From Phyllobates terribilis (Eukaryota): a DNA stretch of 64,000 nt. Made by a program: the position numbers and the translations under genes. This document shows positions 10,396 through 14,848 of the stretch, piece after piece (the first letter of the stretch is position 1; each line of letters opens with the position of its first letter). A model generated the notes under the pieces. The model had not been told where the DNA came from, made no database searches, and saw nothing but the letters and a program-made list of their open reading frames with translations. Location: contig NW_027362762.1 in assembly GCF_046119375.1 (NCBI RefSeq), positions 478,764,001 to 478,828,000 on the forward strand, read 5' to 3'.

Positions 10396-10901
10396 TAGTG
10401 TTGAGCCAACCCCGTAGTGTTCGAGTTCGGTTCGGTTCGTCGAACACCCGTGTGTTCGCCGAACTGTTCGTCAAACTGTTCGTCGAACACCTTCGAACAC
10501 CGTTAAAACCAATGGCAGGCAAACAAAAACACATAGAAACACATAGAAAACACCTTCAAAGGTGTCCAAAAGCTGACAAACTGCTCAGAAGACACAACTA
10601 ACACATGGAAAAGTGACAAGTACATATAGTCATGAGAAAAGAAAAGAGGTGGAGGAGTAAAAGGAGGGGGAGACACAGATATAGGCATGTCATGCCCTTC
10701 TAAAATCCAAAAAGTGAGAAGCCGACACGTTCAGTCCGCTCCTGCCCGTGCCACCTCCGTGTCGCCGGGTTTGTGCCAGAGCCGCGGTGAACCCTGACGG
10801 CCAGCCCCCCTCTCCCAATACTGGTGCCTGTCCGCTGGTGGGTCGAGCGAGCCCCCCTGTGGTGGAGGCAGCTCTAAGCTTTTTAATTTAAATTGTCTCT
10901 C

Positions 10902-11167
10902 TAATTTGAATGAATACACTTTAAATCCATTTACAAGGATCTATTGGAGGGCAAGTCTCATGCCAGCAGCCGCGTAATTCCAGCTCCAGTAGCGTCCACT
11001 AAAGCTGCTGCAGTTAAAAAGCTTTTATAAGGATCGAGCTCGGCTGTCCACCGCAAGGCATCCTATTGCCAGTCGCAGCCCCTATGCCTTGGGGTGCCTC
11101 CTGATGCTCTTCACTGAGTATCCCGTGGTCCCGAAGCATTTCCTTTGAAAAAATTAAGTGTCCAAAC
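10902..11167 (+). pseudogene. 18S rRNA-derived fragment (helix 18/530-loop region into ES6), carried in hAT-B
   Basis: gaatgaatacactttaaatcc...ggatctattggagggcaagtct(ca)tgccagcagccgcg-taattccagctcc...gctgcagttaaaaagct...ccgaagcatttcctttgaaaaaatta matches vertebrate 18S (from memory) with many substitutions; weak match continues to about 11202. Confidence 0.9.
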
Positions 11168-11280
11168 TACAGGTGGTGTAGCTTGCTTAACAGCCGGGAT
11201 AATCCGCTGACTAGCAGACACTGCTACTAGGCACAAAGTATTTCCTGGGCTAGATGCAGTTAAAAATTTGTAAGTAGATA

Positions 11281-13060
11281 CTCTCGTTGGATGCTGAGAA
11301 AGCATTCCATAGAGTCTCCTGGCACGCCATATATGATTCTCTTAAAAAGCTTGGGGTAGGGGTCGAGGGGACCCTTTTATAGCCAAAATCACGGCCCTGT
11401 ATCACAATACGTCACCTAGGCTGAAGATAAATGGAACTGTAGCACCCTGAGGGCTCGGTTGCTACAGAGGTATTGCACCTCACCCAGAGGTGTGATATCT
11501 CACTCTCAGGTAAGGATGGAGTGTGGATCAGGACCCGACACCTGCATGCATTATACCACATTGCCGTGGGGCAGGGCGACCAATATGCCCCAGAGATGGG
11601 CACGACAGTCCCTGTCCCTGGCTGGAGTGGGGGGAGGGAACACTGAGGAAGGGGAACCCTGTAGTGCAGGAGCAGGGAGGAAGCAGTTCCTGGGTGCATT
11701 GAGAAGGGAGTATAAAAGGTGGGCACCATCTTAGTTCAGTGCAGAGAAGTCTGAGCAGAAGTGGCAGGGAGCAGGGGCTCTGCATGAGCTCTGCTCCGGA
11801 GGCGGGCCTAGTAACAGAGGCCCAGGCCTGGAAGAGGGAGAAGGAAGGAAGAGGAGTGGAGAAGGCTCCAGGAACGAGGAACGAAGGGATCCCAGGGGTG
11901 CGGAAGGGCGAGTCGCCACCGCACGCCCGAATCCACCTGCATGGAGGGGTCAGGCCAAAGGGGGAGACCGGTCCCCAAAACTAGTGGAGGCAGGAAACGA
12001 CCCTCAGCTAGAAACCGGAGGCTGTGACATTTTATGTGGCGCAGCCCCTCGCTACACCCGCTAGGAGGGCAGCACATAGGGTCAGGGAAACTGGCGCCAA
12101 GTTTACCAAGAGGAGGCCCGAGGCAGCCGGACAGAAGGGTTGGTAAGAAAGGCCAGACAAAGGACACACAAAGGGGGTCCTGTGAAGCGCTCCAAAGTTA
12201 TCTGGGAGTTGTCTGAGCCCCTCACCTGGTGAGCACAGTACGACGTGGGCAGCCGTTACCTGCAGACGTGGTCTGGATAATAAGAACTGTGAGTAAAGGC
12301 CCTGGACTGCATCACTGACTCCGTGTCGTTACTGCTGCTGCCCTGCACCATCACCCCCATCCTCCGCATACACTGCCCTGAGGCTATACTCCTCCCGTGG
12401 GGAGTTATGCTACGCTCTGCTGCATCCACAACACCAGCCTCAGCGGTCTGCCCTGCAGCGGCGGTTCACTCTGACCGCAATCCACGGGTGGCGTAGTCGG
12501 ACATTTAAACATCAAAACCACATAAATAGTTCCGCCACTGGTTTGACCACCCTGAGCCACGAAGACTACAACCACCAGCATCCACCAAAAAGGGTCCGGC
12601 TCCGGGTGTCCCAAGGCCCAGGGGGCGCATCAGAACATTTTCATCACCTTTCACAATCACCAATGGGACAAGGCAGGGATGTCCTCTGTCCCCTCTCTTA
12701 TACATCCTAGTGACGGAGCACCTGCTCTTATCAATTCGCCATAACCCCAATATTAGGTGGATTGAGGTGGGAGGCACCGAGTACAAGTGCTCTCTATTTG
12801 CTGATGATGTACTAGTATATATCACTCAATCACATATATCCATCCATGCTGTTATGGCTGAAATAGATCACTTTGTTACATGGTCAAATTTTAAAATCAA
12901 TGCAGCGAAGTCTGAGGCCCTCGATGTCTCCCTCCCCAAATCCATATAGGATTCCATCCAGTCCAACTTTCCCTTTGCCTGGCCCTCACAGGGTATCAAA
13001 TACTTAGGAATTCCTATTCATAGAGACCTCTCCCATCTATGTTATCTTAATTTTGGGCCC
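11281..13060 (+). pseudogene. L1/Tx1-type RT fragment interrupted by a solo LTR (hAT-B cargo)
   Basis: LDAEKAFHRVSW; across the LTR: RLKING|TFSSPFTITNGTRQGCPLSPLL; LFADD; IKYLGI. Confidence 0.9.
11438..12632 (+). mobile_element. Solo Gypsy-type LTR (subfamily 1) inside the L1 fragment
   Basis: TGTAGCACCC...GGGGCGCATCA, GAAC TSD, TATAAAA at 11711, AGTAAA poly(A)-type signal near 12294. Confidence 0.92.
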
Positions 13061-13154
13061 TTTATTGAACAACTCCATACAGACCACGGTTGGCAAGTTA
13101 GAACTGTAAGATTCACTACGTGAACCACTGGTGTTTTGTGGAAAAGCACATGTA

Positions 13155-14519
13155 CACTGTGTTCCAAATTATTATGCAAAAAGTGTTTAGGAGTGATAAG
13201 GGAAGAATTTGTTTGTTTGTCAGTTAAACTCATTGATGGTGATGTGTGTCAGGGCTCTTTATATCACTGTAAGCAATTGCAGACACCTGTGCTAATTAGT
13301 TTGGCAGGTGTGTCCAATGAAAGGCAAGACTACTTAAGAAGGCTGTCTCACATTATTAAGCAGCCTACATTTTCTGCCAAAATGGGAAAGAAAAAGGATG
13401 TGTCGGCTGCTGCAACAAATTGTGGAGTGTTTAGGTCAAGGCAAGACTACAATCAACATTGTGCGATGATCAGGATGAAGTGTCTTGGCAATCAAGAAGT
13501 ATGTAGCTGATTCACAGTACACACGTGTGCGTGCTGATAAGGGCAAATTGAGGACTCTTTCCTACAGGCAATTACGTCAGGTTAAAAGAGCAGCGGCAAA
13601 AAAGCCTTGTCATAGCAGCAGACAAGTTTTTGAAGCTGCTGGTGCCTCCAACGTCCCCCGAACAACAAGATGCAGGGTCCTTCAGAGGTTTGCAGCTGTG
13701 CATATGCCATCCTGTCGACCTCCTCTATCCACTTCACACAAGCAGAAACGGCTCCAGTGGGCCAAACATTACATGAAGACTGATTTCAAAACTGTTTTGT
13801 TCACGGATGAGTGCCGTGCAGCGCTCGATGGTCCAGATGGATGGAGTGGAGGATGGCTGGTTGATGGACACCCCACGCAAACACGGCTACAGCGCCAACA
13901 AGGAGGAGGTGGAGTAATGTTTTGGGCTGGAATCATGGGGAGAGAGATTGTCGGCCCCTTTAGGATCCCTGAAGGCGCTAAAGATGAACTCCATAATGTA
14001 TGTGGATTTTCTCAAACAGCACTTCCTGCCATGGTTCAAGAAGAAGAACCATGTATTTCACAGCAAGATCATTTTTTTGCATGATAATGCACCATCTCAT
14101 GCTGCACATAAAACATCTGCATCTCTGGCTGATATGGGCATAAAAGGGGACAAACTTATGGTGTGACCCCCATGCTCCCCTGACCTCTACCCCATTCAGA
14201 ACCTCTGGAGCATCATCAAAAGGAGTGTCTATGATGGCGGGAGGCAGTTCACATTTAAGCAACAGCTCTGGGAGGGTATTCTGTCCTCATGCAAAACAAT
14301 TGAAGCAGAAACCATCCAAAACCTGACAAATTCAATGGACGAGAGAGTTCAGAAGCTCCTTTCGAACAAGGGGTCCTATGTGAAAATGTAACATCACCTA
14401 GAATAAAGTTTTGAGTTGAAAACTGTTTGATTTCAGTTTCTAATAACCTGCTAATGCTTATAATTTCAAAAATGACCATTTTTTTGGTCTTTATTAAAAT
14501 GAAAAGGTTGATCGAAAAG
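13155..14519 (+). mobile_element. Tc1-like DD37E (TRT-type) transposon, right end truncated
   Basis: TA|CACTGTGTTCCAAATTATTATGCA start. Transposase relic 13382-14391 with FTDECRAALDGPDGW, then HDN...37 aa...Q (E mutated). Confidence 0.85.
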
Positions 14520-14523
14520 TTTG

Positions 14524-14642
14524 GGGGATCTAAGAGTGTGGCAACCCAGTAGTCATGATTACTTCGAATTCTGACAATATGAGGGTCATGTTGCAGGTAG
14601 TGCAGCAAGAAGGCACTTATGTGTCTTGCGCATCTCGGAGCC
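14524..14642 (-). pseudogene. Diverged paralogous hAT transposase fragment
   Basis: LHYLQHDPHIVRIRSNHDYWVATLLDP; a diverged copy of about 15460-15575. Confidence 0.8.
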
Positions 14643-14848
14643 CCAAAATTATTTTCCGGGCTAGATGCAGCTAAAAATTATTATTAATTTTAAATCTGGT
14701 GGAGCTTAGTATAGATGGGCTAATAGGATCAGTGCTGCACACTGCTACAAAGCCCAAATTATTTTCCAGTCAAGATACAGATAAACATGATTAGTAATTT
14801 GAAAGCTTAAAACGGTTGGTAGGGTGATTTTAACCAATCATGAAGCTT

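Follow-up and report, generated by a model that had tools for sequence, protein, structure and literature searches.

The 64,000-nucleotide stretch of Phyllobates terribilis DNA analysed here (contig NW_027362762.1, positions 478,764,001 to 478,828,000 of the forward strand; hereafter the window) carries two copies of one hAT element, referred to as B and B', which have been identified by comparison of the window with itself. Taken together with contigs from public sequencing runs, they make it probable that this is a high-copy hAT of about 12 kb, which includes a 4.1-kb block of dead sequence in its majority form, has been spread by its own, likely intact, transposase and has a history of fusion between copies. 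The block lies between the stop codon of the transposase gene and one terminal inverted repeat (TIR), comprises 4,133 bp and is referred to as the cargo. The element belongs to the hAT superfamily, Ac/Hermes type, and possesses its features: 8-bp target site duplications (TSDs), short TIRs with subterminal motifs, a BED domain, a dimerisation domain and a DDE/CxxH catalytic core.

Two copies, their ends and target sites

The main features of the two copies are the following.

10388..10395, left TSD of B, 8 bp, same letters as 22429-22436
10396..22428, copy B, hAT element with its transposase on the minus strand
10396..10715, plus strand, TIR (11 bp) and subterminal region with abundant GTTCG/CGAAC motifs, on the 3' side of the transposase gene
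14849..18138, minus strand, hAT transposase gene of B
18255..21512, internal array of 110-bp tandem units, 29.6 in B and 11.6 in B'
21513..22428, minus strand, subterminal region and TIR on the 5' side of the gene; depth stops here in four of four runs
22429..22436, right TSD of B
49275..57514, copy B', 8,240 bp, TSD at 49267-49274 and 57515-57522
53919..54330, minus strand, BED zinc-finger stretch, in B' and the majority form, missing in B

A perfect 8-bp TSD, CTGATAAG, is present at both ends of B, and a different one, CTATTAAC, equally perfect, at both ends of B'. The surroundings of the two copies are unrelated to each other, as the original prediction had stated. It had also described a common cargo in the same order (a GC-rich segment, an 18S fragment, an L1 reverse transcriptase (RT) fragment and a solo long terminal repeat (LTR) at the same GAAC site), and this is confirmed by the arm shared between the copies, 10396-13154 in B and 49275-52049 in B', which is 97.5% identical. 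The TIRs are 11 bp long with 9 of the 11 letters matching, and 20 of the 24 matches to the GTTCG/CGAAC motifs in B fall within the terminal 115 and 139 bp. The left end of one contig of run X9 coincides exactly with 10396. The 110-bp array of B' occupies 55321-56596, and that of B is devoid of CpG.

Pieces of the cargo arm

The arm on the 3' side of the gene is made up of the following pieces, in order.

10716..10875, GC-rich piece (69% GC, 160 bp), bounds approximate
10905..11172, plus strand, degenerate piece of 18S rRNA corresponding to model positions of about 490-780, approximate bounds
11173..11282, hAT-like internal unit, likely native
11283..11437, plus strand, L1 RT fragment, part 1, frameshifted
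11438..12632, solo LTR, 1,195 bp, TG..CA ends, GAAC duplication at 11434-11437 and 12633-12636
12633..13083, plus strand, L1 RT fragment, part 2, with one stop
13084..13154, minus strand, 71-bp duplicate of transposase 15301-15371, 94% identity, its end being the TA where the TRT-like element begins
13155..14510, plus strand, dead Tc1-type element (TRT-like, DD37E spacing), left end intact, right TIR missing
14524..14646, minus strand, transposase relic of 123 bp, 90% identical to 15460-15582
14631..14807, two diverged units of the 110-bp repeat, 74-77% to the array, likely native 3' repeats of the intact partner

The GC-rich piece has no Rfam match, matches only B' within the window and shows no recognisable frame by eye. 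A weak Rfam row for HIV-1_SL3 (E 1.5) was set aside as a chance match. The 18S piece scores 63.8 bits against SSU_rRNA_eukarya (gathering threshold 50) in B and in B', and the homology extends to about 11170. The unit that follows at 11173-11282 shares 74% identity with 21575-21665 and 88% over 34 bp with 14646-14679; this unit and those at 14631-14807, after which the stop codon of the transposase gene of B is reached, may be native hAT repeats and not cargo.

The L1 fragment has been assigned to RVT_1 (E 3.9e-15). Against solved structures it matches human L1 ORF2p (E 8e-18), with one weaker RT match (E 0.0015), and its nearest relative, L1 ORF2p, places it in the L1 clade at a level where the L1 and Tx1 subclades are not separated. 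The solo LTR that interrupts it occupies the identical site in B' and is 79% identical over 148 bp to the LTRs of a Gypsy-type element at 30494-38358. The TRT-like element starts directly after the TA at 13153-13154; its D-37-x spacing is counted on a translation across one stop, and the position of the E is occupied by Q in B. It is flanked by the 71-bp piece and the 123-bp relic, which are collinear parts of the transposase gene lying 89 bp apart. As far as analysed, the passengers of the hAT element have no evident function.

The majority form of the family

The family-level data are the contigs of five public runs (X1, X4, X9, X10 and X11) among 24 listed, and the runs of organism A possibly include the source sample. 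Half or more of the sequence words of 10100-15600 are present in 16 of the 24 rows, which span four organism labels and five studies, and four small runs of 14-24 million letters contain 0.71-0.72 of them; the RNA-labelled rows X17-X20, with shares of 0.07-0.20, were given no weight. Over 10000-18240 all 29 element bins are covered in each of X4, X9, X10 and X11.

Unbranched contigs cross the cargo junctions at 10396-12504 (depth 28), 12556-13153 (26), 13125-14610 (26) and 14771-15370 (33) in X9, at 10461-11536 (748) and 12575-13117 (753) in X10, and at 10791-11536 (337), 12556-13153 and 13125-14439 (372) in X11. The ratio of cargo to transposase depth is 0.75, 0.74 and 0.64 in X9, X10 and X11, respectively. 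From these contigs and depths it follows that the full layout of B, including the TRT-like element and the hAT relics, is the majority form of the family. The original prediction had taken the last two as additions peculiar to B; since the majority form has both, it is B' that has likely lost them. A truncated, non-autonomous element of the B' type had been considered as the amplified ancestor, based on the L1-transposase join shared by the two copies, and was abandoned because the contigs show the layout of B as the majority.

The flanks vary. On the left, X9 has zero depth in the first flank bin and X11 shows a different flank; on the right, over 21530-22900, depth falls to zero just beyond 22428 in all of X1, X4, X10 and X11. 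Contigs with loose ends at 22428 number 57 in X4 (agreement 0.40, with unlike right flanks), three plus one in X11 and two in X10, with none among the rows listed for X1. Zero cover of the junction of B itself at 22450-22541 in X1 and X4 is counted as no evidence, polymorphism or filtering being possible. The distinct TSDs, the junction contigs and the many flanks bear out the earlier claim that the cargo was inside the element before it transposed.

Flank contigs have a depth of 4.5 in X4 and 6.8 in X1, against a summed 1.6-2.0 million on the element, from which a bracket of roughly 4,000 to 200,000 copies is inferred, allowing for a 2- to 31-fold overlap. The number of transpositions is likely in the thousands to tens of thousands. 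B differs by only 0.66-0.77% from the majority contigs, which points to a recent spread of the family.

Several variants have also been observed. Joints of notable depth at 11223-17720 and 12632-16020 (89.5 and 68.8 in X11) and at 11223-17695 (808 in X4), together with tandem joints that involve the 11205-11268 unit, point to a sister family or to shorter derivatives formed by deletion. A further variant, in which the 5' part of the transposase contains different sequence, is indicated by loose ends at 17752 in X9 and X4 (25 contigs in the latter). At 21584, 21587, 21899 and 22013 about 40% of the letters are alternative in the organism A runs X1 and X4 and none in the contigs of X10 and X11, possibly because of a species-limited subfamily or an assembly effect (bubble removal).

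The transposase and the likely autonomy of the amplified form

The BED finger is recognised in B' (zf-BED, PF02892, E 2.6e-10) and the dimerisation domain in B (Dimer_Tnp_hAT, PF05699, E 5.9e-15). The core of the transposase has been aligned to Hermes (E 1e-20), the second D, the CxxH and the E lining up, and the first catalytic D is presumably that of the TTD motif. With the BED stretch included, the frame comprises 1,233 codons and a stop. Among the named members of 44 transposase homologues, the highest similarity is to sequences of Ranitomeya (79-88% over parts) and Anomaloglossus (71%), which makes a dendrobatoid frog the likely host.

The genes of B and B' are 98.5% identical, and each is broken in its own way. 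In B, a stop codon interrupts the frame at 16985-16987, and the BED finger has been lost with 412 bp deleted at 17243/17244. The frame of B' is interrupted by a stop at 53204-53206 and has two small in-frame deletions, and its 3' end is gone: B' is without 2,217 bp present in B, which hold the TRT-like element, the relic and the 3' end of the transposase with the dimerisation domain and the catalytic E.

The deletion in B is private to it, for in all four of X4, X9, X10 and X11 the loose ends at 17243/17244 match the BED stretch of B'. Of the 40 listed substitutions that separate B from the majority contigs, 32 were tested in B', leaving out six in the segment absent from B' together with 12024 and 12629, where the runs disagree; B' carries the majority letter at 28 of the 32. 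None of the 15 listed majority letters within the gene creates a stop, and one of them shows the stop at 16985 to be private to B. The frame of B is open at the site of the stop of B', and none of the six listed majority indels lies inside the transposase gene. The TRT-like element of the majority form still has its frameshift near 13978. A gene that has stayed open next to broken passengers suggests that the master was self-mobilising. It likely encoded an intact hAT transposase of 1,233 amino acids, and the amplified form of about 12.4 kb, that is B with the 412-bp BED stretch, was likely autonomous, as judged from sequence.

A proposed history of the chimera

The cargo arm probably represents the remains of an older, dead hAT copy of the same family fused to a younger intact one. 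The L1 piece joins a stump of the transposase directly and the TRT-like element lies at a TA within that stump, which suggests that the gene of the copy from which the dead arm came had been cut beforehand. The LTR and the TRT-like element, having their own target-site signs, are ordinary nested insertions; the 18S, GC-rich and L1 pieces are without termini of their own and more probably represent templated filler.

In the proposed history, an older hAT copy would first have acquired its L1, 18S and GC-rich fragments, probably when a gap was repaired with templated filler, and the join to L1 would have truncated its transposase. A Gypsy-type LTR element would then have entered the L1 piece and been reduced to a solo LTR, and the TRT-like element would have entered a TA in the transposase stump, a later deletion taking its right end together with 89 bp of the gene. 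A template switch or deletion near 14640 may next have fused the dead arm, which kept a working TIR, to a younger copy whose gene was complete, and the resulting chimera would have been amplified recently. B' would finally have formed by recombination between the 71-bp transposase repeats, and it would either have moved in trans or have been deleted in place.

The last step can be followed at three diagnostic sites of the 71-bp repeat pair, 13100, 13108 and 13123. B' shows the letter of the gene copy at all three, and over the 123-bp relic stretch it is identical to the gene of B and not to the relic. The majority form keeps the letter of the arm at 13123 and at no fewer than two of the three sites, since the contig breaks at 13125-13153 fit a 31-bp exact run and the contig has one unlisted difference. 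Gene-copy letters in B' and arm letters in the majority form make it likely that recombination at the beginning of the repeat deleted 2,217 bp and so produced B'. Under the alternative polarity the Poisson chance is 0.09-0.25 for two or more changes and 0.01-0.07 for three, which is moderate evidence. It is thus likely that B' lost about 2.2 kb between the 71-bp repeats and that B did not gain it.

Alternative explanations

The explanation that deserves most attention beside the chimera, doubtful as we hold it, is a stepwise templated capture of the pieces, by gap filling or fork switching in the manner of Pack-TIRs, into one continuously active element without fusion of an old and a young copy. 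The absence of own ends from the 18S, GC-rich and L1 pieces agrees with it, as do precise LTR-free joints at 11433-12633 in X4, of low depth (60-185), which may be free L1 copies or a form preceding the LTR. Capture of this kind, in a frog hAT among others, is described in the accessible text of Tan et al. (PMC8277862). The L1 piece, however, abuts a stump with the TRT-like element at a TA inside it, so that the gene was already cut, and the pieces of the stump have diverged from the working gene by 4-10%. It is unlikely that the cargo form was amplified non-autonomously, its movement in trans being driven by a helper from the same family that lacks cargo. Both copies in the window are indeed broken, and the depth of the transposase and right end exceeds that of the cargo by about a third; but the breaks are private, the BED stretch being present and the stop at 16985 absent in the majority form, and B being open at the stop of B', and the 3' end of the gene (14771-15370) is at least as deep as the cargo in X9, X10 and X11.

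Slightly less credible still is an order in which B' is the older state and the B type arose later through insertion of the TRT-like element and recovery of the gene end. The L1-transposase join common to both copies does mean that a structure like B' preceded the insertion of the TRT-like element, but B' has a modern gene (98.5% to B) with gene-copy letters at three of three sites, where the majority form keeps those of the arm at two or more. That only two copies exist, one of them produced by segmental duplication, gene conversion or assembly error, was an outcome considered with the original prediction, and it can be virtually dismissed: apart from the distance of just 27 kb between B and B' nothing favours it, their TSDs and flanks differ, and the public runs hold contigs of high depth in five runs under four organism labels, with many unlike flanks.

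Several observations weigh against the chimeric, self-mobilising element that we prefer. The interval 14610-14771 has cover, but no single listed contig bridges it. About 25-35% of the transposase depth is without matching cargo, so that cargo-free or deleted forms exist and could act as helper. Both copies in the window are broken and no single intact copy has been seen. Summed contig depth is not itself a copy number, and the majority form has been read from 40 of 176 differences and 15 of 200 joints, with X4 counted in part. The steps of the history up to the fusion are based on two copies; the relic (90%) and the 71-bp piece (94-96%) could have had different templates, and the difference in their divergence is not significant (p 0.26).

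Other elements in the window

A distant relative of the hAT element is found on the plus strand at 2915-9500, with a TIR at 2915, a BED match and 26-49% amino acid identity to B and B'. Its gene is flanked on either side by tandem arrays, and an LTR-like insert lies near 4774-5838; its right TIR was looked for in the window and was not found. This element was considered as a model of the cargo-free layout and rejected, being too distant.

The Gypsy-type element at 30494-38358 is full-length, with LTRs 99.1% identical, a weak PNMA match in gag and a coding region with stops. At 44439-46888 a 381-bp unit is repeated 6.3 times in an array that matches its own reverse complement, and is a palindromic satellite or foldback-like element. 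A long interspersed nuclear element (LINE) on the minus strand at 57630-61543 has an open ORF1 with a match like that of GDSL esterases and an open endonuclease-RT frame of 997 codons, and it terminates in ATCATAGA repeats adjoining B'.

Significance

The chances appear about even that this self-mobilising 12-kb chimera of a dead and a live hAT copy exists in tens of thousands of copies across related poison-frog species, contributes several percent of a giant genome, and supplies there most of the young-looking copies of its L1 piece, its TRT variant and an 18S pseudogene that outnumbers the real rDNA. The L1, TRT and 18S pieces have about equal depth in the three long-contig runs, as expected if most of their near-identical copies ride in this hAT, and annotation part by part would then report false young bursts of four classes. 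Hitch-hiking would in that case explain some of the apparent recent bursts of L1, Tc1 and LTR elements in genomes of this kind. Counts of rDNA copies, or probe signals, could also be confused by the presence of 18S fragments in the thousands.

What is surprising here is the scale, the likely autonomy at 12 kb and the effect of false bursts on repeat landscapes. If autonomous, the element would show that a natural vertebrate hAT can do well at a length of about 12 kb; in the accessible part of the review PMC6431247, transposition efficiency is said to drop above about 6 kb of cargo. The element is also one discrete and datable source of genome growth in a frog family whose genomes have expanded in episodes, according to the portion available of PMC12822217. 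In one poison-frog data set hAT-Ac elements account for 5.1% of reads, as given in the available text of PMC12208295.

Comparison with known systems

The element resembles hATs of the Ac/Hermes type and the anuran transposases described as ZBED4/6-like in its 8-bp TSD, its short imperfect TIRs and its BED and Dimer_Tnp_hAT domains. Autonomous hATs are typically of about 3-5 kb. Unlike those of the Ac/Hermes type, the present element is of about 12 kb, with a passenger block of 4.1 kb and an internal array of 1-3 kb. Tx1 and Tx2 of Xenopus are another case of a frog DNA transposon with internal tandem repeats, and host a whole LINE inserted site-specifically; here, in contrast, the passenger is a dead internal RT fragment, which has become fixed in the master and is propagated with it.

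The TRT-like passenger agrees with the TRT (DD37E) family of Tc1 elements, as portrayed in the accessible text of PMC5630946, in its TA target, the 37-residue spacing and a length near 1.5 kb. It differs in lacking the right TIR, in its frameshift and stop, and in moving only as a passenger. No description of an element such as the present one was found in the literature, including the accessible parts of PMC11152451, PMC6278860, PMC12208295, PMC12822217, PMC6431247 and PMC10946416; supplements, repeat libraries, Dfam, Repbase and subscription papers could contain one.

Multicopy capture by a frog hAT has already been published. The available text of PMC8277862 counts four cases of multicopy Pack-TIRs in 100 animal genomes, among them Pack-hAT-N8_XT of Xenopus tropicalis, with 291 bp of host untranslated region in three copies. 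Both are frog hATs that spread foreign sequence by repeated transposition with distinct TSDs; the present element differs in that it keeps a transposase gene next to its cargo, which consists of 4 kb of transposable element and rDNA debris and is present in at least thousands of copies. Of the criteria for Pack-TIRs in that text, an internal sequence of 100-5,000 bp is found here (4,133 bp, though beside a whole gene), and so are multiple copies with distinct TSDs. A unique parental copy, not associated with a transposable element, at 90% identity or above is unlikely for a cargo of transposable elements and multicopy rDNA.

With the plant Pack-MULE, Pack-CACTA and Pack-hAT elements, as far as the consulted sources portray them, it shares several unrelated fragments within one TIR element; no Pack-MULE is longer than the full element of 7 kb, by the accessible part of the review PMC6431247. 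Pack-TYPE elements are defined, in the available text of PMC8903248, as non-autonomous carriers of fragments of coding genes, without a match to transposase. The present element falls outside this definition, since its majority form retains a transposase gene and its identified cargo consists of rDNA, L1, LTR, Tc1 and hAT pieces. Of the original prediction of an autonomous ancestor of about 12.4 kb with some 4 kb of foreign sequence, the size, the cargo and the many moves hold and the autonomy is likely, but the polarity, with the TRT-like element as a gain of B, is not supported. The name Pack-hAT proposed with it is likewise unsuited to an element with its transposase retained, whose cargo is largely transposon debris with the LTR and the TRT-like element as nested insertions. 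The case is thus mostly one of nested debris and not of a Pack-type capture of host genes.

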